This document shows positions 21,298 to 45,404 of a DNA stretch of 54,624 bases, piece after piece (the stretch's first letter is position 1; each line of letters opens with the position of its first letter). Both the position numbers and the translations under genes were made by a program. Below the pieces are notes generated by a model that worked only from the letters and a program-made list of their open reading frames with translations, was not told the origin of the DNA and ran no database searches. Source of the stretch: an uncultured virus (IMG/VR IMGVR_UViG_3300007633_000001) (Duplodnaviria > Heunggongvirae > Uroviricota > Caudoviricetes); IMG/VR virus record IMGVR_UViG_3300007633_000001. One strand, given 5' to 3'.

Positions 21298-21413
21298 ATA
21301 TTAATATCCAGTTAATAGTTATTAAACTTTATATTTATTTATTTATCAGCTATTCGTAAATATAAGTTAGGATTGTGTCCTTTATATTATTGAGAGTAAG
21401 TTAAGTTATATAT

Positions 21414-21719
21414 ATGAAGATAAGTGTTAATTTAAGCCCTGAAGAAATTGATCAAATAGACTATCTTAAGAAGATTACCAAGGCCAGTAGCAGAGGACAA
21501 GTTATTAGACAGATGCTTGAGAAGATGGCTCCATTGTATGAAGATTGGTGGACTGCCGATGTACATCTGACTAGTAAAAGTACTAATTTACAACCTTCAT
21601 CTCCTGTTGATTACGGGGTTGCTAATAATGTTGCTTATGACCCTTACGACAATGAACGAGAGGTTAATAATAATAAGTCTAAAGAATCTGGGTTTGTACC
21701 TCTTGATAAACTTTTATAA
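21414..21719 (+). CDS. Ribbon-helix-helix protein (ParR/CopG-like adaptor)
   Basis: MKISVNLSPEEIDQIDYL....SRGQVIRQML RHH pattern, disordered linker and hydrophobic C-terminal tip; directly downstream of parM. Confidence 0.75.
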   Translation: MKISVNLSPEEIDQIDYLKKITKASSRGQVIRQMLEKMAPLYEDWWTADVHLTSKSTNLQPSSPVDYGVANNVAYDPYDNEREVNNNKSKESGFVPLDKLL

Positions 21720-25859: not shown

Positions 25860-26609
25860 ATGTCTCCAGAAAATCTATTAAAGTTAAATAAAAGATTAAT
25901 TGATTATGTTGTTGAACAAGATAAAGAAGGACTTGGTACTTTATTTCCTATAGAACAGGTAGTGGACGATGGGATTGTCAGTGGATTCTGTTCTGTTGAT
26001 AATGATGTAATTAGTGAAATTAAATACAAGTATGCTCCCATTGTTATTAATGATCTGACTAGATCTACAATAGCTGGAGTATCTCCTGATATGGCTTTAG
26101 AAAGTTTGTTAGAGACTTTTTATAGGAGTATCAATTTATATAGACTTATGAGTCTAACTGATAATTTGGTATATACTCCAGAGGGGTTCATAGAAGAGAA
26201 TAAGGTAGATCAAGAGATTCCCATATTAGAATTAAGGGAAGATGATCTAGAAGATTTCTTAATAGATAATCAAGAATCTATAAAAATTATCTTTACTAAG
26301 GTACAAGAGTCAGATTCTTTATCTGAGCTAGTTGATAGTTTAAAATACAGTGAAGATATAATTTTACTACCAGTAAATGTAGAAGAAGAAATCTGGAGTG
26401 GTGAAGATAGTCACATGGTAATTCTTAAAAAGAATGCACCTGTTGGTATGACTAAAATATTAAGACGATTAGACGAAGAAGGAAATATAGTTCCTTTAGT
26501 AGATGTGAAAAAAGAAGCACACGGTATGAATAGATTATCTATAAGATTTGAGTTCTTACCTTTTGTACAACTAAGATCTAATGTTTATAAGATAAAAATA
26601 ATACCTTAG
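25860..26609 (+). CDS. Hypothetical acidic protein
   Basis: 249-aa ORF. Confidence 0.55.
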   Translation: MSPENLLKLNKRLIDYVVEQDKEGLGTLFPIEQVVDDGIVSGFCSVDNDVISEIKYKYAPIVINDLTRSTIAGVSPDMALESLLETFYRSINLYRLMSLTDNLVYTPEGFIEENKVDQEIPILELREDDLEDFLIDNQESIKIIFTKVQESDSLSELVDSLKYSEDIILLPVNVEEEIWSGEDSHMVILKKNAPVGMTKILRRLDEEGNIVPLVDVKKEAHGMNRLSIRFEFLPFVQLRSNVYKIKIIP

Positions 26610-26666
26610 TCCAACTTTGCACATTTTATAGAAAGTATTTAGTTATTGATTAGAACTAACACCATA

Positions 26667-26789
26667 ATGTATAAGATGATAAATAGATATATACAGAAAG
26701 AATTAAGACTATCACTTCAAAAGAAAAGAATAAAAGAAAGAGAAAGAAGGATGGCCTTCCTAAAGATTAGTAAAAATAGATTAAATTAA
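26667..26789 (+). CDS. Candidate 40-aa basic microprotein (not in ORF track)
   Basis: MYKMINRYIQKELRLSLQKKRIKERERRMAFLKISKNRLN; fills the gap between co-oriented genes. Confidence 0.4.
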   Translation: MYKMINRYIQKELRLSLQKKRIKERERRMAFLKISKNRLN

Positions 26790-26832
26790 AAGTTATTAGT
26801 AATTATTTTATTTATGTTTTATTTATACAAAA

Positions 26833-27252
26833 ATGTTAGATAGTAAACACAGAAAGATAATCAAAGATGTATTTGAGCTTACTAAATCAGTTTTATTAAG
26901 TAAAGGTTATGAATTATCTTCGGATAGTCAAAGCATCAGTTTAGGGCACAAAGAGTTTTACATAACGGGGCAATTAGATGTATCGGCTTATTCTAGATTT
27001 AGAAGACTTGGATTTGGGAGTGATCCATTACCTTTAATATCTTTAGCTATTAGTTACAACAACAGATTGGTATTTAACTTTGGCACTTTAGCTTTAGTTC
27101 ATAATTCTATATTAAGAACTGAAACTGTAGTAGATGTCCATAATACAGAATGGATTAATAAGTTAGAAGCGCTTCACATTGAGTCAATACAAAAAGCTAA
27201 GGGTAGAGAGATTGATAACTTTATAAGAGATAATAAAAAATTACTTTATTAA
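26833..27252 (+). CDS. Hypothetical protein
   Basis: 139-aa ORF. Confidence 0.55.
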   Translation: MLDSKHRKIIKDVFELTKSVLLSKGYELSSDSQSISLGHKEFYITGQLDVSAYSRFRRLGFGSDPLPLISLAISYNNRLVFNFGTLALVHNSILRTETVVDVHNTEWINKLEALHIESIQKAKGREIDNFIRDNKKLLY

Positions 27253-27262
27253 TAAGTCTTAA

Positions 27263-27670
27263 TTGTCAGTAAGAAAAAAGTATAAAGATATGGGCTTTTT
27301 GTTAAGAAGACGTATCTTATTAAAACAAAATGAAGTTACTAATTCATTTATTAGATTACAGATAAGAGTACTAATAAAAGATCTTTCATTAAATAATCCT
27401 TTAAGCATTAAAGCTTATAAGAATTTAGGTTTAATAAAATATATTGTTCAATGGGTTTATGAAAAGGAAGAAAGATATATTTGGATAGTAAGTAGTTACT
27501 TTAACAAAAGATATCCTTTAGAAAACTATTATGAAGTGTTAAATAATTGTATTAGTTGCGATAAAGGCTTTTCTATTTTGTACAAAAATAGGATCAAAGA
27601 AATAGTTTCATATGAAATAGAAGATATAGTAGACGAAGTATTAAAAGAGATATTCTTCAATAGCTATTGA
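27263..27670 (+). CDS. Hypothetical protein
   Basis: 135-aa ORF. Confidence 0.5.
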   Translation: MSVRKKYKDMGFLLRRRILLKQNEVTNSFIRLQIRVLIKDLSLNNPLSIKAYKNLGLIKYIVQWVYEKEERYIWIVSSYFNKRYPLENYYEVLNNCISCDKGFSILYKNRIKEIVSYEIEDIVDEVLKEIFFNSY

Positions 27671-27698
27671 TATTAATATCAAATAATATTGTGAATTT

Positions 27699-27944
27699 AT
27701 GATAAACACTGTTAAAGGCAAATTCAAAAATCATAGAAGTAAATCTTTATTAGTAGAAGAAGTTTGCACTGACACTGATGATCGCATTCTGAATAAATAT
27801 ATTGTTCATTTTATAGATGTAGAAAGGTTAGGCCTAAAAGATAATGATTCAATAGAAGGCCCTTATCACCCTTATAAAGATTTGTATAGAGAAGAGTACA
27901 AAGGTTATTTATTTAAAGGACTAGTCAAGAAAGTAAGTAAATAA
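27699..27944 (+). CDS. Hypothetical protein
   Basis: 81-aa ORF. Confidence 0.5.
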   Translation: MINTVKGKFKNHRSKSLLVEEVCTDTDDRILNKYIVHFIDVERLGLKDNDSIEGPYHPYKDLYREEYKGYLFKGLVKKVSK

Positions 27945-27948
27945 CAAA

Positions 27949-28608
27949 TTAATCACCTTCTAAGATATCTGAATTTTGTTCTATATCTTTATCAGAACCG
28001 CATTCGCAATCACTATTCATAAACATCATTTTTATCAAAGCAGCTTCACCTAAAGCATTAAACTCATTTGAGTCTATTTGAGGAATAATAGTAGAATAAT
28101 TATTATTTATATTTCTCAAATATGGAATGTTATTATCTTCTCCTAGGAAGTTATCTAATTCTGATTCCATACCAATTATTTCATTTATCTTGAGAAACTG
28201 GTATATATCGTATATAAAAGCAGGATAATCCGTTATTGTATTATTCAACCCACCTACTAGTTCTATATAACTAGGATTGCTTAGTATAGTATTAAATCCC
28301 CACAAATGGTTTTCTTTATTAGATTTAGATAAAAATCCCCTTACGTTTTGAGACACATTTTCATAAGATTGCCAGGTCTGATATTGTAATGATTCATTAT
28401 TAAAGATAAATTTATTTATGGATCCTTTGGGTTCCAATTTATCTAAAATCATTTCTTTATCTTTTATAGATACATTATCTGGATTTACATTATCTTCTAT
28501 TATTAAATAAAGCTCTCTTCCTTCTTCACTAACAAGACCTATACTTACAGGTATGGACTTGTTAGTTGATTTGTTTATAACTGTTTTTATAGAAATGAAA
28601 TAATTCAT
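27949..28608 (-). CDS. 3'-5' exoribonuclease-like (Rv2179c/RNase AS, DEDDh) protein, catalytic residues substituted
   Basis: MNYFISIKT...VSIGLVSEEGRELY, HLWG and FNALGEA correspond to family MRYFxDTEF...ISIGxVxEDGREYY and HNALxDA. Confidence 0.65.
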   Translation of the reverse strand: MNYFISIKTVINKSTNKSIPVSIGLVSEEGRELYLIIEDNVNPDNVSIKDKEMILDKLEPKGSINKFIFNNESLQYQTWQSYENVSQNVRGFLSKSNKENHLWGFNTILSNPSYIELVGGLNNTITDYPAFIYDIYQFLKINEIIGMESELDNFLGEDNNIPYLRNINNNYSTIIPQIDSNEFNALGEAALIKMMFMNSDCECGSDKDIEQNSDILEGD

Positions 28609-28766
28609 AATTTTGATATTAGGAATATTGATTAATGATTTACAACAATTGTTTAGATATAAGAATTAATCTAGATATAGATTTTGATCCTGAAGCAACT
28701 TTTGATGCTTTAAGTGAACTTGCTTTTGATATAACAATTTGCCTAATTTTGATATTAGGAGTATTG
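28608..28766 (+). repeat. 23-bp direct repeat (1 mismatch), 136 bp apart
   Basis: taattttgatattaggaatattg (28608-28630) and taattttgatattaggagtattg (28744-28766). Confidence 0.8.
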
Positions 28767-28811
28767 TTTTTAATTTACGCCTGGTATAGGATATGTGACG
28801 AAATTTTATAA
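28635..28811 (+). CDS. Candidate 58-aa single-TM microprotein (not in ORF track)
   Basis: MIYNNCLDIRINLDIDFDPEATFDALSELAFDITICLILILGVLFLIYAWYRICDEIL; AGGA upstream. Confidence 0.55.
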   Translation: MIYNNCLDIRINLDIDFDPEATFDALSELAFDITICLILILGVLFLIYAWYRICDEIL

Positions 28812-28868
28812 ATGTTTATAGTCTTAAATAATAAAAGTTTAACTGTTTAGAAGATACAAAATAATATA

Positions 28869-30545
28869 ATGCTAAATTATAGAAGAGATATAGGATTGGT
28901 TACACTGGATGATGATGATACAGGAGTAAGAGTAGGAACATTACTTCAAAGTGATAAGCCACAAAGAGGAGCCAGAAATGCTTATGCAATGGCTAGATTT
29001 AGTAGGAAACCTTTAGATATATCTTTAGTATCTATACTAGAAGAACTAGAGAGTAAAGACTCTAAAACTAGAATAGAGAATATTGTACATAATTATGGTC
29101 ATTCCAGCGTTGCTGATCTAGCAGCAGGTCAGTTTGTATTCATTGAGAATATTTCAGTATTGGATACTTTAAGGTTTCACTATCACAATTACTTTTATGC
29201 CTCCCAAGAAAGTAGTACTAGATACATCACTATAAATACAGATAGATTAGACCAAGTTAGAGATAGTATAAAAATACCTAAAGCTTTATCAATAGATAAA
29301 AATAAAGAACCAGAAAAGGATTACATAAATATTTGTACAGATTACTTCAAGAACTATAATGGTTTCATTGATAGATTTAAAGAAGTATTAGCTGAGTATT
29401 ATGAAGTAGAACATTCTTCTAAAACATTACATTCTAGAGCTCTTGATTGTGCTAGATATTTCTTACCTTTAGCTACTAAAGTAGGATTAGGAGTAACTAT
29501 GAGTGCTAGAAAATGGAGTGGGGAATTGAAAAGATTGTTGAGATCTCCTTACAAAGATGACAACAGTATATACAAGTTATTAAATCAGCTATTAGTTCAA
29601 GGAGATGAATATGTTAAAGAATACATACCTGAAGCTGATTCTTTATTAAGACATATAGATGGCTCTTCAAACATATTTGATTTAGTCAATCTTTCCAATA
29701 ACATACTAGACGGCTATGTTGATGTTATAGAATTATATCCATCAAATATAAAGCCCATACTTGATAATAATAAGGTTCATATAGGCAGCATAAAGTTAAT
29801 TAATAAATTAAAGGCATTGAATAATCCTTATTCATATATTGATGAGGAATTAAACTTAGAAAGTCAACATATCAAGAGTTTAGCTAGTTTTATAAATAGT
29901 AACTTTAATAGATATGAGGAATTGCCGAGAAGTTTATTTTCTTCTTCTGATATAACAGTATCAGGATATACGGATATAGGTAGTTTTAAAGATTTAAATA
30001 GACATAGATCAGCCTTTAGATTTTGTCCTGTACTAGAAAATTATTCTTTGTTATATTATGACCTCTTACATAATTATGATTTAAAAAGCTTTATAACTAT
30101 TCCTCCTTATATAAATCATATTTTAGAAGATGAATCTGTTAGTAAAGAGTTAAGAAATAAGGTTAATATTCTTAAAGAAGATTATTTAAATAGTATGGGC
30201 TTTATAATAGCCAAAGCACTTAATCTGTTTTATAGATTAATAGCTGATACTGATATAGATTTACAAGAATGTTCTTATATAATAAGTCACTTATTACCTC
30301 ACGGGTTTATCATTCCTTATACATTTAGTCTTGATTTATCTTCATTAACGTATATTGCTGATTTAAGAACTAGGGCTGGCGCTCATATTTCATATTCACT
30401 ATTAGTCAGAGATTGGGTTGAAGCTTTATCTAAAGATAATAATTCTATAAAAGATGAAATGTCTTATCAAATTTTATTAAGTATAAAAGATTCTTTAAAC
30501 AAAGAAGATCCATTCTCTAGAGAAATGTTTGTAGGAAGGTCATAA
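28869..30545 (+). CDS. thyX: FAD-dependent thymidylate synthase, long two-domain type
   Basis: YGHSSVA, QESSTRY and ARYFLP in domain 1; KDLNRHRS and LRTRAGAHISY in domain 2. Confidence 0.85.
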   Translation: MLNYRRDIGLVTLDDDDTGVRVGTLLQSDKPQRGARNAYAMARFSRKPLDISLVSILEELESKDSKTRIENIVHNYGHSSVADLAAGQFVFIENISVLDTLRFHYHNYFYASQESSTRYITINTDRLDQVRDSIKIPKALSIDKNKEPEKDYINICTDYFKNYNGFIDRFKEVLAEYYEVEHSSKTLHSRALDCARYFLPLATKVGLGVTMSARKWSGELKRLLRSPYKDDNSIYKLLNQLLVQGDEYVKEYIPEADSLLRHIDGSSNIFDLVNLSNNILDGYVDVIELYPSNIKPILDNNKVHIGSIKLINKLKALNNPYSYIDEELNLESQHIKSLASFINSNFNRYEELPRSLFSSSDITVSGYTDIGSFKDLNRHRSAFRFCPVLENYSLLYYDLLHNYDLKSFITIPPYINHILEDESVSKELRNKVNILKEDYLNSMGFIIAKALNLFYRLIADTDIDLQECSYIISHLLPHGFIIPYTFSLDLSSLTYIADLRTRAGAHISYSLLVRDWVEALSKDNNSIKDEMSYQILLSIKDSLNKEDPFSREMFVGRS

Positions 30546-30575
30546 TCCACTAAACCTTTAATTTTTACTAACTGA

Positions 30576-31529
30576 ATGAAAGTAATGAAATATTTAATTA
30601 CTCGTAGTCTTTTTTATTTACCAATAATTTCTACCGTACTTTTTATCACCGGTTGTGACTTGAATAGTTCTAATGAAGTTATAATTGAGTCTATTGTTTC
30701 AAATGAGGAATCAATTAGCAATGGTAGTGACAGGGAAAAATCCCAAAGAGAAATAGTAGAAATACAGTCTGATAAAAGGTATTTAATGACCGAGAATGTG
30801 TACGGTGAAGTCTATGTGATTGATGAGAATGGAAATGAACAACCAGTAGAACAAGGTGAAAGAATCACTGATTTAAATCAAACTATTGTTACAAAATCTG
30901 ATTCTAGTGCTTCGTTTACTGTTCAAGACTTCGACGTTGCTTATATATTAGTTGGACCTAACACCCGATTTAATATAAAGGAAGCTGTGGTTACAGAAGG
31001 AGGAGGTAGGTCTACTGAAGTAAATTTACAATCTGGCCAAGTGAGAGTTATAGCTAGACCTTTCAATAACGAAGAGAGTGAAGTAACATTAAATACCCCA
31101 TTTCTATCAGCAATAGTCAGAGGTACTGAATTTGGGGTTTCAGCAGGTAATGAAGAATCAGCTGTGGCAGTCGTTGAAGGTACAGTAGGAATTAGTTTAT
31201 CTGAGGGAAGTGAAAATCCATTAGATATTAGTGGAGGAGATTTAGTTTATGTAAATCCTGACCTTTCCAATGAGATTATACAAATTAAGTTAGATAGTGA
31301 TCCTACAATTAATTATGATTCAACTAGATTAGAAAACGGGGATGTTCAGATAGAAGGAATTACTGAAATTTACAATCTAGTTTATATCAATGGAACAGAG
31401 ATAACAAAAGAGGAAGGAACTTTTACATATACTATACCTGCTGCTGAGGTTAGTGAGGCGATTATAGAAATTGTCACACCATTAGGTGTAGAGATATCGA
31501 CTACTGTAGCCAGTCAAACTACCTTTTAG
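30576..31529 (+). CDS. FecR-domain lipoprotein with C-terminal Ig-like domain
   Basis: Lipobox ITGC. FecR motifs IVTKSDSSASF, VGPNT, LQSGQV, TP..SAIVRGTEFGV and AVVEGTV. Confidence 0.85.
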   Translation: MKVMKYLITRSLFYLPIISTVLFITGCDLNSSNEVIIESIVSNEESISNGSDREKSQREIVEIQSDKRYLMTENVYGEVYVIDENGNEQPVEQGERITDLNQTIVTKSDSSASFTVQDFDVAYILVGPNTRFNIKEAVVTEGGGRSTEVNLQSGQVRVIARPFNNEESEVTLNTPFLSAIVRGTEFGVSAGNEESAVAVVEGTVGISLSEGSENPLDISGGDLVYVNPDLSNEIIQIKLDSDPTINYDSTRLENGDVQIEGITEIYNLVYINGTEITKEEGTFTYTIPAAEVSEAIIEIVTPLGVEISTTVASQTTF

Positions 31530-31670
31530 CGTGGCTGATAGGATTTAGTTAGTTACTACTATAGAACAATCAAATTAATACTTTATTAATTTGCTATAAA
31601 ATCATTATATTAATGAAATACATTATTTTATAGTAGTAACAAAACTCGTATATATATATATATACCCAAT

Positions 31671-32561
31671 ATGTATTTTAAAAATAGAGGGATATTATTA
31701 TCTTTATCTTTATTAACTTTAAGTAGTTGTGATGTAAACTCAGGGGTCAATAGTAATAATAATTCTAATTCTCAAAGTTTCTCTGTTCACAATTTAAATC
31801 GTACAATTATCTATGAGAGAGATATTAAAGAAACAGGAGTTACAGTAGGAAATAGAATTTTATATAAATCACTACCCGACAATAATGTAGAAGAAGTGCC
31901 AGCAGAGGTAGGAGAGACCAATAATCAGATAGTTAGAGATGACAGTATAGATTTTATAAATAGAGCATATAATGCATCTCAATGGTTAGAAACTCAAAGC
32001 TCAATAACAAGTATAGGAGCAACAATATCTAATCAATCATCCAGTGCTTTAAGTAAAGCAACACCTTTGACTCTAAGAAGAGACGAGGGTAATGATTTAT
32101 TTATTGATACTGGTTTTCTAGAAGTTGATAGATCTGAACAATATGTAGCGATTAGTACTCAACCTAATGGAAGAGTTTCTGTTGTTGCTTATAGAGATGC
32201 GTTTAATGTAGAGCTAGAAGAAGGTAGAGATATTATTGTAGAACAAGGAAGATTTACTACCTTTAGTGGTCAAGCACAGGGAAATATTTTAACTAATATT
32301 CCATTCGAAGAGGGGAATCAATTAGACTACTCTATACAATCGGTAGAAGTAATTAATACATCAGATGATGAACAAAGGTTGGAAGTTGTATTATTAGTGC
32401 CTCCTTATATAAATGTTTATGTTGATGAAAATATAGCCGAAGTAGAAGAAGAGGGGATAGTAACTTTACAGGTAGACTTATCTGAAGATTCTAATATTAC
32501 ATTAATTGCTCCTAATGGAGAAGATAAATTAATAAGTATTAGTTCCTTGTTTAATGAATAG
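31671..32561 (+). CDS. Lipoprotein, probable degenerate FecR paralog
   Basis: Lipobox LSSC. IDTGFLEV, ISTQPNGRVSV, FNV and IIVEQG follow FecR strand order; the C-terminal module parallels the upstream gene. Confidence 0.55.
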   Translation: MYFKNRGILLSLSLLTLSSCDVNSGVNSNNNSNSQSFSVHNLNRTIIYERDIKETGVTVGNRILYKSLPDNNVEEVPAEVGETNNQIVRDDSIDFINRAYNASQWLETQSSITSIGATISNQSSSALSKATPLTLRRDEGNDLFIDTGFLEVDRSEQYVAISTQPNGRVSVVAYRDAFNVELEEGRDIIVEQGRFTTFSGQAQGNILTNIPFEEGNQLDYSIQSVEVINTSDDEQRLEVVLLVPPYINVYVDENIAEVEEEGIVTLQVDLSEDSNITLIAPNGEDKLISISSLFNE

Positions 32562-32691
32562 AAGTATAAGAAAAGAGTCGTAAAGTACTAAGTAGCTTTA
32601 TTACTAACTAACTTTATAGTCTATAGATTTACTAAACGTATTGGATATAGGGTGCATCTAATTTATCAATAATATTTAACAATTTAGTTCT

Positions 32692-34293
32692 GTGATACCA
32701 AGTAAGATTTTTAGATTACTATTTAGTAGTACTATTAATATAGTAATATGTATATTACTTATAATATTGTGGAGTTATTCATCAAAACAAGGTATAGATT
32801 CTTATTTTTATAATAGCTTTATAAGATACACAGCCAGACCCAATTGGAATGAGGACTTTGTAATAATAAATATTACAGATGAAGATATTGAGAAATATGG
32901 AAGGTGGCCTTGGGATAGAGATTTATTAGCAAGATTTATATATAAACTTGAAGAGCAAGAACCATCAGTTATAGCACTTGATATTCTGTTCAGTGAACCT
33001 TCGCCAAAAGATGAACAGTTAATATCAGCCTTTAATAAAACTAAAAGAGTCGTAGGGGCAGCTGCTATTTCTAGTGATAAAGAATTTATACTTCCTTTAG
33101 AAGAATTTATTAATAGTTATAAGGATATAGGTCATACAGCAGTATATACAAACGAATTAGGAACACCATTTTCAATTCCTACTGTTTTATATAATAAAGG
33201 CAATGCTTATTACTCATTAGGTACAGCAACTTATGTGTCTCATCGACTCTACAACTTTGAGCTACCAGAACAAATAAATAATCCAGAACTAATTATTAAT
33301 TGGTACAGAGGAATGCCTGATAATATGTATACCTTCTCTCAGATTTTAGAATCTGAGACACCAAATAATAAATTTACTAATAAGATAGTTTTTATATCTT
33401 TAGATGTAACTGGACTTGATAGAGTGATGACTCCTTTTGGTTATCAATCTTATGGAGGATTTGTTCATGCCACATTCATTAATAATCTTCTTAATCAAGA
33501 TAGTATTAATATTTCAACCATACCTTTTTATATACAAATAGTTTCAGTATTCTTCGTTTCATCTTTAATTTCATCATTTAATATAAAGTTAAAACTATCC
33601 TTTGGGATAATAATTTATATAGTAATTTCAGCTATATTTATATCAATAACTTATTACAGCTTATTAATATATAATACTTGGTTTTCATTAATACCAGCGG
33701 TATCGGCTTTAGTAGGACAATTTATTTCATCTTCATTAATAATAAGATTTAACATTAAAAATAGAATTTCAGCGTTGATGAAAGCTGCTTATATTGACAA
33801 GCTAACAGGCATCCCTAATAGAAGAAGGTTTGATGAAGAGTTATTGGAAAGGTGGGATAAAGCGGTAATACATGATATCTCAATAGCAATTATCCTTATA
33901 GATATAGATAATTTCAAGAAGTACAATGATACATACGGACATCAAATGGGTGATGTTTGTTTAACAAAAGTAGCTCAGACTATTAACAAAGAGACAAGAC
34001 AATACGATTTATGTGCACGATATGGCGGGGAAGAATTTGTGATTTTATGTAGTACGTCAAACTTAAACATAATGTGCAGTAGAATAAATAAAGCTGTAGA
34101 GAATTTAAGTATACCTCATGAAAAGAATGTAAAAGGGGTAGTTACCATTAGTATGGGTGCTATACTATGTAATCCTCACAAACAGTCGTGTACTCCAAAG
34201 AGTATTATAGAATTAGCTGATAAAGGTCTTTACGAATCCAAAGAGAAAGGTAGAAATACTTATACAATAATAAAATTTAATAAAGAAAGCTAA
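32692..34293 (+). CDS. CHASE2-3TM-GGDEF diguanylate cyclase
   Basis: CHASE2 motifs ITDEDI..GRWPWDR and IALDILFSEP, then three TM helices. GGDEF domain: DKLTGIPNRR, DIDNFKKYNDTYGH, I-site RQYD, active-site GGEEF and ADKGLYESKEKGRN. Confidence 0.95.
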   Translation: MIPSKIFRLLFSSTINIVICILLIILWSYSSKQGIDSYFYNSFIRYTARPNWNEDFVIINITDEDIEKYGRWPWDRDLLARFIYKLEEQEPSVIALDILFSEPSPKDEQLISAFNKTKRVVGAAAISSDKEFILPLEEFINSYKDIGHTAVYTNELGTPFSIPTVLYNKGNAYYSLGTATYVSHRLYNFELPEQINNPELIINWYRGMPDNMYTFSQILESETPNNKFTNKIVFISLDVTGLDRVMTPFGYQSYGGFVHATFINNLLNQDSINISTIPFYIQIVSVFFVSSLISSFNIKLKLSFGIIIYIVISAIFISITYYSLLIYNTWFSLIPAVSALVGQFISSSLIIRFNIKNRISALMKAAYIDKLTGIPNRRRFDEELLERWDKAVIHDISIAIILIDIDNFKKYNDTYGHQMGDVCLTKVAQTINKETRQYDLCARYGGEEFVILCSTSNLNIMCSRINKAVENLSIPHEKNVKGVVTISMGAILCNPHKQSCTPKSIIELADKGLYESKEKGRNTYTIIKFNKES

Positions 34294-34297
34294 AAGT

Positions 34298-34333
34298 ATA
34301 AATAGACCTTATAAGTATATAAGATCTATTTAT
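34298..34333. terminator. Hairpin between convergent genes (putative bidirectional terminator)
   Basis: ataaatagaccttata pairs with tataagatctatttat (1 mismatch). Confidence 0.6.
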
Positions 34334-34378
34334 TGTAGGGAACAAAAGGTAGATTTAGTAAAGATTAGGATTAGTAGA

Positions 34379-34609
34379 TTAGTTAAGAGATTTACTTAAA
34401 TAATGTCCACATTTAGTACACATAAGATTGACATAAGTCCTACCACTTACAGTATAAGTAGCACTACTATTCATTGGAGATGAGCATTTAGGACAAATGT
34501 TACTATCAACATTTGCTCCTAAACTTTGGGATGGTAATTGAATATTTTGAACACTAACAGGAGGTCTCCAAGTAGGAGCTGATGAACGGCTTCTTCCACA
34601 ACAAGGCAT
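34379..34609 (-). CDS. Small zinc-ribbon protein
   Basis: MPCCGR start; CPKC...CTKC. Confidence 0.7.
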   Translation of the reverse strand: MPCCGRSRSSAPTWRPPVSVQNIQLPSQSLGANVDSNICPKCSSPMNSSATYTVSGRTYVNLMCTKCGHYLSKSLN

Positions 34610-34702
34610 AGTTTTATATTAGGTAGAAAAGTTTATTGTCTATTAGGTTTATAGTATATTATAGATGATTAATTGTGTTAATTAGTAATCATCTGTAAAT
34701 GT

Positions 34703-35206
34703 ATGACTAACAATATTAAAGATAAGAAAGATAGATTTGATTTTTATAAACAATTATTTTTTAGTTATGAACTTCACCATACTAAAGATACAGATGTTAA
34801 ACTTAATTTCATCAATTCTATATTGAATAAAAGTAATAAAGATTTTGATATAAATAGAGTTAATAAAAGACATTTAGAATTAATTAAAGACTATACCTTA
34901 TACCCATTTATCTTTTTATGGTCTACTTTATCAAGCATTAAAGGTAGTCCTTCTTTATTAATACAATATTACCTATATGAATTAGGTTATGAGAGATATC
35001 AAGAACTTATTGAAGCAGTTATTTACGAAGATATAACTTATCTTAAATCAGATTGTTTTAGGGATTATCTTATCTACGATAATAAAGGGGGACGTTGGGT
35101 ATTTGAAAAGAATGAAGATTTAATAAGTTTATATTTAAATAATCGATCTTTATCAAACTTTCTTTTAGAGAATAGATTTAATTTCTTATCTTTATCAACA
35201 TTGTAG
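34703..35206 (+). CDS. Hypothetical protein
   Basis: 167-aa ORF. Confidence 0.55.
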   Translation: MTNNIKDKKDRFDFYKQLFFSYELHHTKDTDVKLNFINSILNKSNKDFDINRVNKRHLELIKDYTLYPFIFLWSTLSSIKGSPSLLIQYYLYELGYERYQELIEAVIYEDITYLKSDCFRDYLIYDNKGGRWVFEKNEDLISLYLNNRSLSNFLLENRFNFLSLSTL

Positions 35207-35644
35207 TTTTAGAGTATAACCAGTTATTTGGGCCATAGAACCTTTTCTAACACACATTGAATCATCATTTACAATCCAATCGAATTCAAGGTCAACAGGA
35301 GTTCCAGCACTCCTTTTTTGTAAGGCTTCATTTACTGTACTTTCAGCAACTATTTTACCTCTTATTACTGGTAATAAATCTCTATTAAGAAATTCAAAGG
35401 TATCCATCCTACCCGCATTAATAGCCCTAGAAGAAGTTATAGAGTTTAAGACAGCCATATTATTTTTATTATCTATAGAGAAAGCAGGAGTAGATAGATT
35501 CATCTTAAATAGAATAGTTCCTGATTCAGCTCCGCCAGAAGAATATATCACTAAAGAAGGATAGGCACATGAACTACCTTCTTCAATAAGATTAATAATA
35601 CACTCTAACATTTTGATATGAGCATCCTTTGAAAGTGTTGGCAT
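35195..35644 (-). CDS. Putative virion structural (beta-rich) protein
   Basis: LVIYSSG...LSTPAF...AINAG..TF...G...ITGYTL pattern, seen in small phage tail-associated proteins. Confidence 0.45.
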   Translation of the reverse strand: MPTLSKDAHIKMLECIINLIEEGSSCAYPSLVIYSSGGAESGTILFKMNLSTPAFSIDNKNNMAVLNSITSSRAINAGRMDTFEFLNRDLLPVIRGKIVAESTVNEALQKRSAGTPVDLEFDWIVNDDSMCVRKGSMAQITGYTLKLQC

Positions 35645-35702
35645 AGTTCTTACTAATTGCTTTATATATTTAGTTCTAATATTATATAAAAGCCTTAAGT
35701 AT

Positions 35703-36719
35703 GTGATAAGTAAGTATCTTTTATTTAACCTAAATGAATTGTGCTTATTTAGCTTATACTCAACACTTACTTTTATTAAAAAAATAATGGATTGTTATAA
35801 AGAGTTAAAAGATAATGGCTGTAAACTCCAACACTGTATTGAACTAATAGTATATGATAAGATTGACATTTGTACTATTGGTGGAGAAATAAGTCTTAAC
35901 GTTGATTTAGGGGCTTATGTAGATTCTATTACTTTACTAGAAGCTGATCAATCTATTTGCTTTAAGTACTTAAACTGTATGGAGGGGTATGTCTATGATG
36001 ATATAAGTTTTAATATAGAGGATTCTTTATGTTTAGTAGTTAAGGTAAATGGTTCTATTACTTTAGGTAATGAAGTAATACCTCCTTGTAAGTCTTATTA
36101 TAAGCAAATTAGTAATTCATTAGAAATGAAATTAAGAAAGTTATTAGATACGCCCAGCGAACTAGAATTATCTTCTATAGACTTACTTCTATCAAACTCT
36201 TCAGAATTCATACCTGAAATTCCACAACCCATACCCTTTAACACAGGTACTAGAGGAAATATTAATAATCAACATAGAATTAAAATAAGAGTATTAAAGT
36301 CAACAACTTTATGTAAAGGAACCACTGAGGAACGTCGAATCTGGTTAGTAGCTGTAGTTGAATTTGATAATGTTCCTACTTTGTTATTATTTAATCATCT
36401 ATATAGTAGTACTCAATTTGTGCCTTATAGGTATAAACTTGATAAATCTATTTATATACAAATGGTGAAATACATACATTCTTTATTTGTGTATGAAGAA
36501 GAGGATATAGATAACTGTATGCCTTATCCTATTTATAATAAAGAGCTGAATGTTTTATCAGGTAAGATGACATATCCACAAAGGTCAATAGATCCATGTG
36601 AACCTAATGAGACTATAGGGTTATTAGAATGTACAGAAGTATATGAGGACGATTCTACTATTAAGGAAGTCTTGGAAGCCGACATAGATAAGTTTTTTAA
36701 AGTATATAATCTTACTTAA
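35703..36719 (+). CDS. Hypothetical Cys-rich protein (start likely at ATG near 35788)
   Basis: 338-aa ORF. Confidence 0.55.
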   Translation: MISKYLLFNLNELCLFSLYSTLTFIKKIMDCYKELKDNGCKLQHCIELIVYDKIDICTIGGEISLNVDLGAYVDSITLLEADQSICFKYLNCMEGYVYDDISFNIEDSLCLVVKVNGSITLGNEVIPPCKSYYKQISNSLEMKLRKLLDTPSELELSSIDLLLSNSSEFIPEIPQPIPFNTGTRGNINNQHRIKIRVLKSTTLCKGTTEERRIWLVAVVEFDNVPTLLLFNHLYSSTQFVPYRYKLDKSIYIQMVKYIHSLFVYEEEDIDNCMPYPIYNKELNVLSGKMTYPQRSIDPCEPNETIGLLECTEVYEDDSTIKEVLEADIDKFFKVYNLT

Positions 36720-36784
36720 GATAAAGACAAGGATAAGAGAGGAGGAAGTGGATAGAAAGTGTTTTAAAGTTCGTATAAAAATTA

Positions 36785-37333
36785 ATGAAAAGTCTAGTAA
36801 TAAGAACACCTTATTTATATAATACAAAGCAAACTTTAGACAGGGTTCATATCGCTTATAAATTGATTTATAAACAGTCTGATGATGTAGAGATAATTTC
36901 TAGTAATCATATTGGAGATTTAATTGATGAAGAAATAACGTTATCAGTATCAAGTGATGTTGAAGGTTTAAGCGAAGAGCAGTCACTATGCAATTCTATA
37001 GAGGAAAGTAGAGATTTATTAAGACAATTATCTGATTCAAGAAGGAGAATAGTTACTATATATGATATAAATAAATCTTATTTAAAGTCTACAAAAGTAA
37101 TATCTTCATTTATAAAGTTTAGGCATATTACAGAAGCAGAGATTGAACAGTTAGTGGTTAGATATGAGTGGCCAAATAAGGTGTTTGATTTGGAAGGTAT
37201 AACTAATTTATATATAAAGAGTGTCGAGGGTAGTTTAGGGTGTATTAATGGTATATGTCTTGTTACATTAAATAAGTTATTAAACGATATAGGATTATCA
37301 ATTAATGACTTTATTATCCACCAAACCTCATAA
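36785..37333 (+). CDS. Degenerate Maf-like protein
   Basis: LLRQLSD....VT, IKFRHITEAEIEQLV, IKSVEG and INGICLVTLNKLL parallel the Maf C-terminal half. The LASxSPRR, ADT and DKAGxY motifs are lost. Confidence 0.6.
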   Translation: MKSLVIRTPYLYNTKQTLDRVHIAYKLIYKQSDDVEIISSNHIGDLIDEEITLSVSSDVEGLSEEQSLCNSIEESRDLLRQLSDSRRRIVTIYDINKSYLKSTKVISSFIKFRHITEAEIEQLVVRYEWPNKVFDLEGITNLYIKSVEGSLGCINGICLVTLNKLLNDIGLSINDFIIHQTS

Positions 37334-37678
37334 TCTCTTTTTCTTCCATATATTATTATTACTTATTTCTTTAATAGGAGGGACTAGTCTAACTATAAAT
37401 ATATTTACTTTTTTATTATCTTCTCTTTGAACCAACAAGGCTATTTTATTCTTCTGTAAAAGAGAAGATATAGTTTTATGAAGAGACTCAATCTCTTGTA
37501 GTAACTTATATTTTTCTTCTTTATTAAGAGTAAGAGTTAAAAAAGGTTTAAAGGGTGTTCTAATATATACTTCATTTTCATCTTTTGAATTAAGTAAATT
37601 AAATTTATTATCAAATAGTAGAGGCTTATTAAAAGGGGTGATAATAGTGTTTAAAAAGTTGTTAATTGAGTTTAGCAT
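37328..37678 (-). CDS. Hypothetical protein
   Basis: 116-aa ORF. Confidence 0.45.
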   Translation of the reverse strand: MLNSINNFLNTIITPFNKPLLFDNKFNLLNSKDENEVYIRTPFKPFLTLTLNKEEKYKLLQEIESLHKTISSLLQKNKIALLVQREDNKKVNIFIVRLVPPIKEISNNNIWKKKRL

Positions 37679-37852
37679 TTAAGTATTTATATATTTAGAG
37701 ATATTTTAGTATAAGAATATTTTTATTCTTACTAAAGACTTTATATTATGGCTTATTTTTTAGATTGACTAAGTTAACTAAGATAATAACAATAACAATA
37801 ATATTAAAGTGATAGTTAAGAATATTATCTTTAAAAGATATTAACAATTCTA

Positions 37853-38224
37853 ATGACTCAATTAAAAAACTTTACATTATATATAGACAAAGCCTCTGAG
37901 TTTAGAAGAACAACAATTGCTGAAGGAAGAGACTTAGTTCAAGAAGTCATAAACATATTCTTTGACAGTTATCCAGAAGTAGAAGAGATAAAGTTTAGGA
38001 TTGATCTACCTCAATGGAATACTTATAGAGATAATCCTATAATTTCTAATTGGACTTTAAAGTTAGATAATGCTATTGTTAAAATTCAAGATGACAAAGA
38101 TGGAGATTATTCATCAATTGTTGGGACATTAAATTCTATATTTAGAGAATTAGGTATAGGTTTGGTATCTAAATACGGCCAAGGAGAAGTTATTATTTGT
38201 AACAATAATCTTAAAACTCTTTAA
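37853..38224 (+). CDS. Hypothetical protein
   Basis: 123-aa ORF. Confidence 0.55.
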   Translation: MTQLKNFTLYIDKASEFRRTTIAEGRDLVQEVINIFFDSYPEVEEIKFRIDLPQWNTYRDNPIISNWTLKLDNAIVKIQDDKDGDYSSIVGTLNSIFRELGIGLVSKYGQGEVIICNNNLKTL

Positions 38225-38259
38225 TTTAAAATAAATCTTATATACAAATATAATATTAA

Positions 38260-38736
38260 ATGCCGAATCCCTGTAACACTCCTAATGAAATAGAAGAACA
38301 ACACGTAGATATAGAAGAAGACTTATGTCCACCTAAAGTATTAAAGTGTGGTGAGGAACCTTTACTTTTAGGTATAGATAATAAATGTTCAGAAGGAGAA
38401 CTTATCACTAACTTTCAGAATGTGGTAGAAGAAATGGCTAAGGTAAGAGGTATAAGGGTCACATCCAACTCTTATAAAGAAAGAGTGACGTTTAGTTTTT
38501 CAGTATCTACAAGTGTTGACATGCCTTTACCTCCTACTGCTTCTCTTGTAGAGAAACATAATATAGTCCAGTCCATAATGCTTAATTTACAGGAAGGAAT
38601 AAAGAGAGAGGTTTATAAATACAGTTTATGTGGAAATTGTGTCTGTAACATATGTGATTGGCAATATGATTCTACGGATAATCCTTGCGAACCTTGTTCT
38701 ACTTGTAATGACTGGCCTGAACCAGGATGTAATTAA
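38260..38736 (+). CDS. Hypothetical protein with Cys-rich C-terminus
   Basis: CGNCVCNIC...CEPCSTC....C. Confidence 0.6.
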   Translation: MPNPCNTPNEIEEQHVDIEEDLCPPKVLKCGEEPLLLGIDNKCSEGELITNFQNVVEEMAKVRGIRVTSNSYKERVTFSFSVSTSVDMPLPPTASLVEKHNIVQSIMLNLQEGIKREVYKYSLCGNCVCNICDWQYDSTDNPCEPCSTCNDWPEPGCN

Positions 38737-38777
38737 TTCTTAATTTTATTCATACAAATAATTTATATAAAAAGTCT

Positions 38778-38810
38778 TAGCTATAACTCTTAAAGTTATA
38801 GCTATTTTTA
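38778..38810 (+). terminator. Intrinsic terminator
   Basis: tagctataact-cttaa-agttatagcta followed by a T run. Confidence 0.65.
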
Positions 38811-39060
38811 CATCTTATTAATTTTACTTTTATAATTAAGGGTTTTAATTTCTTATAGTCATATAAATATTTTTAATATAAATGAAGAATAAATGATGAC
38901 AATTATTTTAAGAGTAAAAAATAGTTGACGTACACCTTTATAGAAACCTGTAGAGGACAGTGATAATAAAACTGCTAATCATTATTTATATATAGAATAT
39001 TGATAATATATAATAACCTGAGTCCAAATTAATGATGTTTATCAAGACCCTATATATATA

Positions 39061-39846
39061 ATGACTATTACAGTTGATAATTATCTCAAAGTAAATGATG
39101 TAAAAAGAAAGCCTCTAATATCTTCAGATTATATTGAAGGTAAAGGTGATTTAATTGGAAGATTGAATGACAAAAAAGATTCTTTATTGGATAATGAATC
39201 TAAAGAAGATTGCCCTTTATTACTTAATGTAAGTAATGTTAAGTCTACGTCCAAAGTTAATGGATGTCCAATTCATTCAGATACTACTAAACCAAATAAG
39301 GTTGATAAGTCTAATATTGTAGAGATTAATTTTTATCACGCTCTTACTGAACTAAGAGCAGATCTTTCCATTTTACATTCTTATATACAGGAAGCTCAAT
39401 TTGACAATAAAGTTAAAGAGACATGGATATCGTTATGTGAATGGATAGCAGATTTTTCTTTTTCACTAGGAAGGTATGTAGCTTTAAAAGGAAAAACTAA
39501 ACATAAAGCACCTTTAAGAGATATCAACGAAATGGTTAGAGTCATTGATCATTGTAAGGAAGTGACTGGCGATTGTGAGAATTTCTTATATCATAAACAT
39601 GAAGATATCAGTTTAATTAATAAAGTACTAATCAAAATTAGGAAATTAGAAAGTCATTATGAGTTCTGGGTTTTATCTAATAAAGAAGAGATGAAATCTT
39701 TAGGAGATGCTTGTGATTGGCAGTTATTGTTGAATAGATTATCTTCTATGGTTTTCTGGATGTTAAGGAGAAAATATTTGGAAGATGATATAAAAGAATC
39801 TCAATGGTCAGGCTCAGTTAGAAAACTAAGTATTGATTTGATATAA
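39061..39846 (+). CDS. PduO-type cob(I)alamin adenosyltransferase-like protein (divergent)
   Basis: Helical pattern ALTELRADLS, FSFSLG, IRKLE and LLNRLSSMVFWMLR (family NRLSDxLFxxAR); directly upstream of a B12-dependent RNR. Confidence 0.6.
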   Translation: MTITVDNYLKVNDVKRKPLISSDYIEGKGDLIGRLNDKKDSLLDNESKEDCPLLLNVSNVKSTSKVNGCPIHSDTTKPNKVDKSNIVEINFYHALTELRADLSILHSYIQEAQFDNKVKETWISLCEWIADFSFSLGRYVALKGKTKHKAPLRDINEMVRVIDHCKEVTGDCENFLYHKHEDISLINKVLIKIRKLESHYEFWVLSNKEEMKSLGDACDWQLLLNRLSSMVFWMLRRKYLEDDIKESQWSGSVRKLSIDLI

Positions 39847-39936
39847 ATTGATTAATATATATGTATATATTTATACATAGTTTAGGATATTGATAGATAA
39901 AAGGAGCTTAGAATAAAATAAGAGAATATATCGTAT

Positions 39937-42312: not shown

Positions 42313-42459
42313 GTAAGAGTACTAATAAATAAGACTTACATCTTATCAAATAACTTTTATAGTATAGATAGAATTATTTTTAATTCACTCTATACTTTTA
42401 TTTATTTTTATAGTTATTGATTTTATTAAATTAATAATTAAGCATAAAATATAATTTAG

Positions 42460-43041
42460 ATGATATCTCTTCAAGTAAGAAAGAAAGATCTAGCTGTACC
42501 TTTAAATGTTCCAAATGATAAAACATTATTAACTAATAATATAAAGACTAAACCAGGTAAACCACATCCTGAGCAAGTCAAATCTTTATTAGTTAGAAAG
42601 TATAGTAACAAAGATAAGCTTGATGTATGGTTTAAGTTTATATCTACTTCTTCTACCAACTCCTTAGTATTTTATACAAATACTTTAAGAGCCTTATGGG
42701 GTGATCTATATGGAACTAACAAGTCAGGTTCCCCCAAACAATTCTCATCTTTAATGGACCGTATAAACACTAACAAAGCTGTTAATGGTTGGGTAGTCTA
42801 TAGAGTCAGTGAGGATACTAAAGACATTAAAGATGCTAATTGGGAATTTTATAAAGTATTGACATCCCAAAAGATTATATACATTAGGACTTCTAATATG
42901 AATTCTTTTGTAGGTGGCTTTTTAAATACTGGATATCATGCAAATGGTTGTGCTAAGAAAGTTACAACTTATTGGGACTTAGCTAAAGGCAAGAGGGATA
43001 AATTCAGTCCTGTTAGTGGGTGGTTTGTTAAAGCCTTATAA
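42460..43041 (+). CDS. Hypothetical basic protein
   Basis: 193-aa ORF. Confidence 0.6.
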   Translation: MISLQVRKKDLAVPLNVPNDKTLLTNNIKTKPGKPHPEQVKSLLVRKYSNKDKLDVWFKFISTSSTNSLVFYTNTLRALWGDLYGTNKSGSPKQFSSLMDRINTNKAVNGWVVYRVSEDTKDIKDANWEFYKVLTSQKIIYIRTSNMNSFVGGFLNTGYHANGCAKKVTTYWDLAKGKRDKFSPVSGWFVKAL

Positions 43042-43062
43042 AAACAATATTTAATTTTAATT

Positions 43063-43251
43063 ATGGAAAACTTTGATATAAAGGATCAACACACTATTAA
43101 ATCTGACTATATTCAAGATGTTACTGACGAATCAATAGAATCAAATAGACAAGAGCTAAAAGAAGAAGAAGAGGCAGAAAAGATAGAGGAAATGAATAGG
43201 CCTTTAGAATCAGAAATATTATTTGTAAGAAGGCTAAATAGAATTAACTAA
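43063..43251 (+). CDS. Small acidic hypothetical protein
   Basis: 62-aa ORF. Confidence 0.5.
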   Translation: MENFDIKDQHTIKSDYIQDVTDESIESNRQELKEEEEAEKIEEMNRPLESEILFVRRLNRIN

Positions 43252-43338
43252 AATCCTTAAATATTTATGTATTTATGTATTTATATTTTTAAAACTATAT
43301 TTGTAAAATAGAACTTTGTAATAAAAGAGAAGCTGACA

Positions 43339-44796: not shown

Positions 44797-44856
44797 ATTC
44801 ATATATATTAGAATTCAGTAAGTACTTGATAATTAATAAAAATCATTATTTAAAGA

Positions 44857-45321
44857 ATGAAGTATATAAATGAAGAAGCACTAGAGGCTATATTCCCTAA
44901 GATTAGAAGAAGTATAGAGATGATTGATTTAGCTATCAATCAAATTGAAGGTAATCAGAGATCTTCAGTTATAACCTCAGCCATTAACTATTTAAGTCAA
45001 CTGATTCAATTAGTCTTACCCAACTCTATAAGTTCTATACCTGATAGTAATAGAATAAAGTTCAAATGGTTTAAAGAAGAGTACCAATTGGAATTAGAAG
45101 TTATACCAGATAGGCCCAGGTCAGCCTTTCACATTTCTAAAAAGAATAGGGACAAGACGAATATGTGGTTAGTTGATAGCGATGCTAAGGTATTTGAAAC
45201 CATATTCATGTTTCTAATCAGTCCTTATAGTATATGGTTATCTCAAACTGAATCTGAATCTGATTTACCAGTTACTACTAAAAGTCGATATATAGATATA
45301 AACAAACTGCCTCGAAGATAA
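44857..45321 (+). CDS. Hypothetical protein between the AAA and vWA genes
   Basis: 154-aa ORF. Confidence 0.55.
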   Translation: MKYINEEALEAIFPKIRRSIEMIDLAINQIEGNQRSSVITSAINYLSQLIQLVLPNSISSIPDSNRIKFKWFKEEYQLELEVIPDRPRSAFHISKKNRDKTNMWLVDSDAKVFETIFMFLISPYSIWLSQTESESDLPVTTKSRYIDINKLPRR

Positions 45322-45404
45322 GTTCTTTCCTATAAAACTATTGATTTGATTAATACATCTATATTCAAGTATCAACATTTATAAAAGTTAGAAACAATCA
45401 TTTT

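Follow-up and report, generated by a model that had tools for sequence, protein, structure and literature searches.

Positions 30576-34293 of the IMG/VR virus record IMGVR_UViG_3300007633_000001, a 54,624-nt stretch of DNA from an uncultured member of the Caudoviricetes (the whole stretch is called here the window), carry a cassette of three genes on the + strand. They are predicted to encode a FecR-domain lipoprotein (open reading frame, ORF, A), an orphan lipoprotein (ORF B) and a membrane-bound diguanylate cyclase in which a CHASE2 sensor domain is joined to a GGDEF domain (ORF C). A preliminary description of this DNA had proposed three co-oriented genes at this place, lying directly behind thyX; all three were found there, and a ThyX-like gene ends 30 bp 5' of ORF A. 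The features of the locus are the following:

30576-31529, + strand: ORF A, predicted FecR-domain lipoprotein of 317 amino acids (aa) (Pfam, lipobox regular expression)
31671-32561, + strand: ORF B, predicted orphan lipoprotein of 296 aa (lipobox regular expression, open frame)
32692-34293, + strand: ORF C, predicted CHASE2-GGDEF membrane diguanylate cyclase of 533 aa, with a GTG start (Pfam)
32746-33564, + strand: CHASE2 domain of ORF C, residues 19-291, predicted periplasmic (Pfam coordinates, hydropathy)
33787-34257, + strand: GGDEF domain of ORF C, residues 366-522 (Pfam)
33997-34008, + strand: I-site RQYD (alignment)
34024-34038, + strand: GGEEF active site (alignment)
28869-30545, + strand: ThyX-like gene, 558 aa, directly 5' of ORF A (Pfam Thy1, phrog_36506)
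34298-34333, + strand: hairpin, candidate terminator, 5 bp past the ORF C stop (RNA folding)

The ORF C protein matched the CHASE2 family (PF05226) with 135.6 bits against a cut-off of 26.3, the GGDEF family (PF00990) with 158.2 bits (cut-off 23.8) and the NCBIfam model TIGR00254 with 160.4 bits (cut-off 37.4). Its hydrophobic segments, residues 4-35 and the block 271-351, fit a topology in which a first transmembrane (TM) helix would be followed by a periplasmic CHASE2 domain, about three TM helices and a cytoplasmic GGDEF domain. When ORF C was aligned with ten other CHASE2-GGDEF proteins, the GGEEF motif (residues 445-449) and the RxxD motif (residues 436-439, R436-Q-Y-D439, five residues N-terminal to GGEEF) were invariant in 11/11 sequences, as were D404, D406, N412, D421, K517 and R521. 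Furthermore, the GGDEF domain aligned with that of WspR, a solved and active cyclase (E-value 1e-33), with RSSDLAARYGGEEF placed against RQYDLCARYGGEEF and the RQYD of ORF C against the RSSD of WspR. We take the metal- and GTP-binding roles of these residues from the PleD/WspR literature, and D421 presumably occupies the position of the guanine-specifying Asp of canonical cyclases, following the literature on Hypr GGDEF enzymes. ORF C thus looks catalytically competent and product-inhibited, and the intact GGEEF and RxxD motifs that had been read from it were confirmed by the Pfam matches and the alignment. Its CHASE2 part carries the motifs WPW.R and D.LF.E, which are common to cyanobacterial and marine-phage CHASE2 domains.

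ORF A matched the Pfam FecR family (PF04773) with 44.6 bits (cut-off 24) over residues 103-204, and scored 175.9 bits against a leave-one-out hidden Markov model (HMM) built from its relatives. The protein comprises a signal peptide with the lipobox ITGC (Cys27), a linker of about 35 aa, the FecR domain and a C-terminal Ig-like beta domain. It aligned over its full length with seven cellular FecR proteins at 26-30% identity (six cyanobacterial partners of CHASE2-GGDEF cyclases and P0123, from a Spirulina metagenome-assembled genome), and at about 50-51% identity with the protein P0122, the shared region including the C-terminal Ig-like part. A lipobox is also present in P0122 (LSGC), whereas the cellular partners (7/7) have a plain signal peptide, and the linker is longer in ORF A and P0122 than in these seven proteins. 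The ESM Atlas model of ORF A, with a predicted local distance difference test (pLDDT) value of 0.70, resembled a cyanobacterial FecR cluster (TM-scores 0.68/0.79; feature scores 0.92 and 0.91), and tblastn detected no INPHARED match to ORF A. The layout of a FecIRA-type anti-sigma system is missing from ORF A, which has a lipoprotein signal peptide and a FecR domain only; no extracytoplasmic function sigma factor adjoins it (its neighbours are ThyX, B and C, and the sole sigma factor of the window is RpoD-like), and no TonB receptor was found among window ORFs of at least 80 aa.

ORF B shows a lipobox (LSSC, Cys20), an Asn/Ser-rich linker and a beta-rich body. The N-termini of both ORF A and ORF B consist of a basic stretch, a hydrophobic stretch and then the lipobox, which was recognized with the pattern [LVI][ASTVI][GAS]C, so that lipidation of both proteins is predicted. 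The length of the open frame, 296 codons, has a chance probability of about 2e-12 at the base composition of the window, and this alone argues that ORF B is a real gene. No Pfam (even at E<=10), PHROG, NCBIfam or PADLOC match was obtained for it. ORFs A and B had both been described beforehand as lipoboxed FecR/Ig-like proteins: the lipobox stands for both and the FecR domain for A, while sequence comparison gave no support for a FecR domain in B. The ESM Atlas clusters nearest to ORF B were FecR clusters (feature scores 0.89, 0.86 and 0.86, with 171 features shared at 0.89), and they were those retrieved with ORF A, run as a control, in nearly identical order; its structure neighbours in the Atlas reached TM-scores of 0.53/0.57 over residues 52-293 with a model pLDDT of 0.45. 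A model made by AlphaFold2 with no alignment had a mean pLDDT of 37, rising to 52-70 for residues 235-293, and the piece of ORF B aligned by hhalign (residues 234-284) landed on the cognate C-terminal domain of the FecR alignment. The Atlas features and the model-structure neighbours point weakly towards a FecR/Ig-like nature, and we lean towards ORF B being a very divergent A-like (FecR plus Ig-like) paralogue.

In both ORF A and ORF B an Asp directly follows the Cys predicted to be lipid-modified. In enterobacteria an Asp at this position keeps lipoproteins in the inner membrane, a rule whose validity for cyanobacteria is not established. Should it apply here, A and B would lie beside the CHASE2 domain and would not span the envelope. 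The term trans-envelope, applied earlier to this cassette, is not supported, since an inner-membrane location is possible for each of the two lipoproteins.

The intergenic gaps are 141 bp between A and B and 130 bp between B and C; the 30-bp spacing to thyX, taken alone, suggests that thyX and ORF A are possibly co-transcribed. GC content and third-position GC content (GC3) were 0.34/0.20 for ORF A, 0.31/0.15 for ORF B and 0.29/0.19 for ORF C, values that lie inside the spread of 20 other window ORFs or at its margin (GC 0.317 +/- 0.032, GC3 0.203 +/- 0.023), so that the phage-like composition noticed in the preliminary description was reproduced. The hairpin past ORF C (-11.3 kcal/mol, z -2.79) was equalled by 2/200 shuffled sequences and is not listed by a terminator consensus scan. 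Two adjacent hairpins also lie right after the ORF A stop (31530-31600, + strand; -14.9 kcal/mol, z -3.2, 1/200 shuffles as good), and they may represent an internal terminator or a processing site. A promoter consensus scan was uninformative, returning 27 promoter-like sites where 40 +/- 6 were expected, and a single terminator-like site, inside thyX.

Comparisons with PHROGs and Pfam identified, upstream of the cassette, two rIIA-like proteins, an M23 peptidase, an RpoD-like sigma factor, GroES/GroEL, a ParM-like protein, HNH nucleases, a peptide deformylase and an RNase H, and, downstream of it, a B12-dependent (class II) ribonucleotide reductase, a CobS-like ATPase, a VWA protein and six tail-fibre-like genes. 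The GC content along the window varies between 0.25 and 0.37 with no step at the cassette. In four soil-metagenome runs (X1 to X4) 70-99% of the sampled words from 29000-36000 were present. One 27,332-bp contig of run X1 covers 26000-39000, one contig of X2 covers 26000-35297, in X3 separate contigs bridge 30184-30793 and 31776-39000, and in X4 one contig bridges 33787-34739; throughout 26000-39000 these contigs run without joints or indels. As the window may itself derive from X1 and X2, the independent support is that of X3 and X4. Because assemblies from four runs cross both junctions the cassette is not a chimera, and the contig is viral and continuous, a point that the preliminary description had marked for confirmation. 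The cluster entry for the ORF C protein lists a contig of 185,952 bp, the phage core genes share only 22-36% identity with any isolated phage, and the cassette region had no DNA match in INPHARED. The source is a large, distant, uncultured phage.

The closest relative of ORF C, P0002 (a 539-aa protein with 66% identity, encoded on a 10-kb contig), was the sole close one in a collection of 5.8 billion proteins, and it keeps the GTG start. The next relatives, at 33-30% identity, include the diguanylate cyclases of Anabaena sphaerica (FACHB-251) and Anabaena sp. 90 (P0005, P0006). At E<=1e-12 the CHASE2 part matched 37/301 sampled Cyanobacteriota genomes (best 5.4e-31; ORFs of 538-544 aa) and 7/301 sampled Pseudomonadota (best 1.9e-18; ORFs of 759-886 aa). 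In the six cyanobacterial loci that hold the closest full-length genomic homologues of ORF C, the gene immediately upstream and in the same orientation codes in every case (6/6) for a FecR protein (276-278 aa), with a gap of 8-20 bp or a 4-bp overlap between the two genes. This operon shares with the phage cassette the architecture and length of the cyclase (532-540 aa) and an upstream, co-oriented partner consisting of a FecR domain and a C-terminal Ig-like domain, and it holds the closest named relatives of both proteins (about 30% identity for C, 27-30% for A). In a maximum-likelihood tree of 41 CHASE2-GGDEF proteins, from which two GGDEF-only rows (L162, L164) were left out, ORF C (P0001) and P0002 formed a pair whose stem measures 1.7 changes per column. 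Other searches were less selective: a genome-contig scan was dominated by GGDEF patterns, with the CHASE2 part covered in 1/79 loci, a metagenome scan with the P0001/P0002 alignment gave generic GGDEF loci only, and a word-indexed search with the CHASE2 region returned 18 proteins and missed the cyanobacterial relatives. Judged by its sequence, the cassette is cyanobacteria-like and old, and ORFs A and C appear to be a phage counterpart of the FecR and CHASE2-GGDEF gene pair that is conserved in cyanobacteria.

Pairs of FecR and CHASE2 genes had been named beforehand as known from bacterial chromosomes, and besides the six cyanobacterial loci they are described in the available texts of two reports: the Burkholderia 'BiofilmReg' operon, composed of a response regulator, a LysM-FecR protein and a CHASE2 histidine kinase (PMC5192318), and the Campylobacterota clusters of a CHASE2 adenylate cyclase with a FecR-domain protein (PMC9239204). 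As described there, both resemble the phage cassette in that the gene for a CHASE2 receptor adjoins one for an exported FecR-domain protein; they differ in being cellular and in having other output domains. For Anabaena PCC 7120, the accessible part of PMC13075795 describes All1219 (Alr1219) as an active CHASE2-TM-PAS-GGDEF protein inhibited through its RxxD I-site (Ki 3.7 uM), and as one of two primary cyclases in an organism for which cyclic di-GMP (c-di-GMP) is essential for viability. Compared by description only, All1219 and ORF C share a CHASE2-linked GGDEF domain and a canonical RxxD I-site, whereas All1219 has an additional PAS domain, and a FecR partner is unmentioned in that part of the article.

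A similar gene order occurs in marine phages with a different output. With the CHASE2 part as a tblastn query, six INPHARED records were retrieved, two of Pelagibacter phage HTVC008M and four of Methylophilales phage Melnitz. HTVC008M gp017-gp019 and Melnitz genes 102-104 encode, according to Pfam, a FecR protein, a Curlin_rpt protein (with PA14 in addition in HTVC008M) and a CHASE2+Guanylate_cyc protein, and the annotated order in both phages is CsgF, CsgG, a curlin protein and then this trio. As in the cassette described here, the trio is phage-borne and encodes on one strand a FecR protein, one exported middle protein and a TM-CHASE2-TM-cyclase. In contrast to ORF C, the output domain is a class III cyclase (Guanylate_cyc); the trio follows curli genes, whereas no CsgF, CsgG or Curlin_rpt match was found among the scanned window ORFs; the curlin-repeat/PA14 middle protein has no similarity to ORF B; and the CHASE2 domain of ORF C shares 22% identity with the marine-phage domains and 28% with the cyanobacterial ones.

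A scan of IMG/VR with the CHASE2 alignment confirmed 470 stretches, and the best 80 of them (L288-L367) were typed; three partial ORFs were left out, leaving 77 genes. CHASE2+Guanylate_cyc was the architecture of 76/77, the remaining one having CHASE2 only, and none carried GGDEF. Upstream on the same strand, a match to a FecR HMM, which was built partly from the HTVC008M and Melnitz proteins, was found in 41/80 loci, and in 39/51 of those with >2.6 kb of upstream DNA; one or two ORFs separated FecR from the cyclase in 39/41 of the FecR-matching loci. The three-gene synteny, for which a search of phage databases had been suggested, is found as far as the gene order goes, with Guanylate_cyc as the output and no GGDEF among the typed genes.

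The available text of PMC9599517 reports FecR and 'AC' (adenylate cyclase) in a pelagiphage curli (type VIII secretion system) module, with trees, an ocean-wide distribution and metatranscriptome matches indicating expression; there FecR is read as an iron regulator and CHASE is not mentioned. In the corresponding parts of PMC7029224 and PMC9004378 the curli genes are discussed without FecR, CHASE2 or the cyclase. The genes for CHASE2-class III cyclases are very common in viral contigs, and their CHASE2 nature is unmentioned in the portions of these three articles that were available.

Virus-encoded GGDEF proteins are in print as well, judging from the accessible texts on a Mu-like virus of the Cariaco Basin (PMC7785012), glacier-ice Methylobacterium viruses (PMC8290583) and Bacillus phage G gp350 (PMC12484599); the likeness to ORF C is that of a GGDEF domain on viral DNA, known from annotations only. 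GGDEF relatives were found in 88 INPHARED records and 175 IMG/VR stretches, many of them prophage-like, and the CHASE2 part was unmatched in these 88 records and in the best 80 of the 175 IMG/VR loci. No close relative was found in IMG/VR with either the ORF C protein or a Nostocales-type CHASE2 alignment, the CHASE2-GGDEF version was not found in INPHARED or IMG/VR, and a literature search, which left supplements outside, found no description of a phage CHASE2-GGDEF gene. The cassette had been put forward as an undescribed kind of system. This does not hold for its kind: HTVC008M, Melnitz and most typed IMG/VR loci share the gene order, the module of PMC9599517 includes FecR and the cyclase, and viral GGDEF proteins have been published. 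What is new here is the combination of a GGDEF output, lipoprotein partners, the absence of curli genes, and a soil phage with cyanobacterial affinities.

Taken as a whole, this locus is likely to be a phage-encoded envelope-sensor cassette with c-di-GMP as its output, in which the A and B partners would gate the cyclase in the infected cell through an interaction, an activity and a cue that we infer. During infection ORF C would be inserted in the host cytoplasmic membrane, with ORF A lipid-anchored in the periplasm and ORF B probably likewise, as a second lipid-anchored beta protein. A and B would set the state of the CHASE2 domain, which would be relayed across the membrane to the GGDEF domains; these would convert two GTP molecules to c-di-GMP, with the RxxD I-site as a feedback limit, and c-di-GMP would then act on host effectors. 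PilZ or riboswitch effectors had been suggested as something to look for in the phage genome. Within the window there were no PilZ, EAL or HD-GYP proteins, and Rfam at the gathering threshold gave nothing and thus no c-di-GMP riboswitch, and there was no tRNA; the absence of an effector in the window implies that the targets of c-di-GMP would be those of the host. This host is probably a cyanobacterium. The best NCBIfam model for the RpoD-like sigma factor of the window is a cyanobacterial RpoD-like family (272 bits, below the cut-off of 384.5), a match that we regard as a hint. The sigma factor gene lies at 14744-15796 (+ strand), and regions 1.2, 2, 3 and 4 are all present in its product.

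As a best guess, the cassette would alter the cell surface, adhesion or motility. Two readings of the benefit to the phage compete. One is such an alteration, or control of superinfection, which agrees with what c-di-GMP generally does and with the association of the marine version with curli; the other is the upkeep of a messenger that Anabaena needs to live (PMC13075795). Receptor masking, aggregation and lysis timing, put forward in the preliminary description, are conjectural roles. As to descent, the A and C pair would derive from the two-gene operon type of filamentous cyanobacteria. The marine phages and this soil phage most likely acquired their receptors separately, since B is unlike the middle genes, C is nearer to cyanobacteria and A is absent from INPHARED.

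Several observations weigh against this interpretation. We know of no ligand or mechanism for any CHASE2 domain, and no solved CHASE2 structure was found by sequence. In the cyanobacterial operon, which is cellular, no gene separates FecR from the cyclase, whereas the 296-aa ORF B does so here, and the cyanobacterial FecR partners have an ordinary signal peptide where phage A and P0122 have a lipobox. The attachment of P0001/P0002 in the tree had a support of only 26 and does not put the pair inside any cyanobacterial clade, the nearest by path being the FecR-linked cyanobacterial clade; with such support and the long branch, we name no donor. For ORF B, phmmer against 1.84 billion cluster representatives returned ORF B alone, BLASTP against ORF A was not significant (E 0.049 over 31 residues), hhalign gave a probability of 0.4% with the FecR profile (E 0.15), and the custom FecR HMM gave 2-3 bits, at the same C-terminal place as the hhalign piece. 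As ORF B has no sequence homologue, its membership of the cassette rests on position, strand, lipobox and the Atlas leads. Finally, in the part of PMC13075795 that was accessible, raised c-di-GMP in Anabaena caused no visible growth or cell-size phenotype, and a surface or aggregation effect is therefore not a given. Complex prediction for CHASE2 (residues 38-285) and ORF A (residues 60-317), both with alignments, scored 0.00 and counts neither way.

Among the other explanations, the cyclase might be a maintenance gene that keeps c-di-GMP above what the host needs for viability and cell size while host transcription is shut down, with A and B as assembly or stability partners. The essential role of c-di-GMP in Anabaena PCC 7120 with All1219 as a primary cyclase (according to the text available of PMC13075795), the other host-maintenance genes of the window (peptide deformylase, GroES/EL, ribonucleotide reductase and ThyX) and the cyanobacterial affinity of the cassette all agree with this idea; nevertheless, a bare cytoplasmic GGDEF protein would suffice for such a function, yet a full receptor with two exported partners has been kept, and we consider it unlikely. 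It is also conceivable, and in our opinion quite improbable, that ORF C is active but that A and B are unrelated neighbours serving, for example, superinfection exclusion or lysis control, the cyclase being otherwise regulated or constitutive. ORF B lacks relatives in the phmmer search, exclusion-type lipoproteins are common in phages, and the gaps of 141 and 130 bp together with the hairpins past ORF A mean that A, B and C need not share one transcript. Against this, the adjacency of FecR and CHASE2 in 6/6 cyanobacterial loci and in most typed phage loci indicates a functional pair, ORF A aligns end to end with the cyanobacterial FecR partners, and the position of ORF B mirrors that of the middle gene of the marine-phage trio.

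That the GGDEF domain makes another cyclic dinucleotide, or is a nucleotide-binding decoy against a host cyclic-nucleotide defence, seems to us very improbable. Some GGDEF enzymes do make cGAMP. Phages and defence systems conflict over cyclic nucleotides (PMC12657218, in the text available); on the other hand, D421 is an invariant Asp aligned with WspR at the position that specifies guanine in canonical cyclases, and no PADLOC family matches A, B or C. Hardly credible, in turn, is cellular DNA mis-joined to the phage, or picked up passively and very recently with no role in it, although the nearest named relatives of the cassette are cellular and no GGDEF-output relative was found in INPHARED or IMG/VR. 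The contigs that cross both borders come from four runs (two of them maybe the source of the window) and show no joints, GC and GC3 agree with the phage background, and the closest cellular proteins are only 26-31% identical. Moreover, P0002 (66% identical to C) and P0122 (about 50-51% to A) are of the low-GC type, and P0122 shows the lipobox change too; relatives of this type elsewhere imply a long residence in such genomes.

The A and C pair parallels the marine trio, which implies that distant phage lineages have kept one receptor design with different second-messenger outputs. A further, tentative and rather doubtful proposal is that phages of unrelated lineages took up a FecR-CHASE2 receptor independently, each lineage keeping it with its own exported middle protein, as a virus-owned outside-in signalling device that resets a host messenger. 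The output would be of the cAMP/cGMP type in marine T4-like phages and c-di-GMP in the soil phage. Through fast-evolving lipoprotein co-receptors the device would read the envelope or the surroundings (adsorption of a second phage, envelope damage or crowding), and the response would be a superinfection block, the gluing of sibling cells or the timing of lysis.

Most of the phage manipulators of second messengers known so far are sponges or nucleases directed against defence signals. A receptor carried in full, from extracytoplasmic sensor and accessory proteins to cyclase, would imply a virus that conditions the manipulation of its host on a cue from outside the cytoplasm. That abundant marine phages use this receptor design too, coupled to another output, points to a general strategy that has hardly been studied, and the cassette offers a compact three-gene system in which to ask what CHASE2 senses and what FecR-domain partners do, in bacteria too.

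With respect to the neighbouring genes, the ThyX-like protein matched Pfam Thy1 with 58.8 bits over residues 34-217, phrog_36506 (thymidylate synthase) with an E-value of 1.1e-36 and the NCBIfam thyX model with 29.9 bits, below its cut-off. The protein is about twice the usual length, phrog_36506 spanning residues 3-400 and the Thy1 profile only 34-217, and it may be a duplicated or fused form of ThyX. Directly past the cassette, on the - strand (34379-34609), a 76-aa ORF contains CxxC...CxxC pairs resembling a zinc ribbon, with no significant family.

At the 5' side of the window two tandem genes, 482-2875 (797 aa) and 2960-5341 (793 aa), both on the + strand, had rIIA phrog_612 as their best match (E 8e-57 and 1e-48), and both products have a GHKL ATPase-like N-terminus; as rIIB was only a weaker match, the two genes resemble an rIIA pair more than rIIA/rIIB. 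The GroES/GroEL pair occupies 17064-19144 (+ strand), and its GroEL is at most about 26% identical to phage GroEL proteins in INPHARED (196 records matched). At 20320-21719 (+ strand) a ParM/ALP-like actin (ALP_N, phrog_691 partition protein) precedes a small ribbon-helix-helix protein, a possible plasmid-type partition pair that would suggest a phage-plasmid lifestyle or intracellular positioning. A B12 cluster on the + strand (39061-46940) encodes a PduO-type cobalamin adenosyltransferase-like protein, an adenosylcobalamin-dependent ribonucleoside-triphosphate reductase (RTPR-like), a CobS-like ATPase and a DUF2201/VWA (CobT-like) protein, and two tail-fibre paralogues on the - strand (49287-51789) combine Mtd_N, the N-terminal domain of a major tropism determinant, with tail collar domains.

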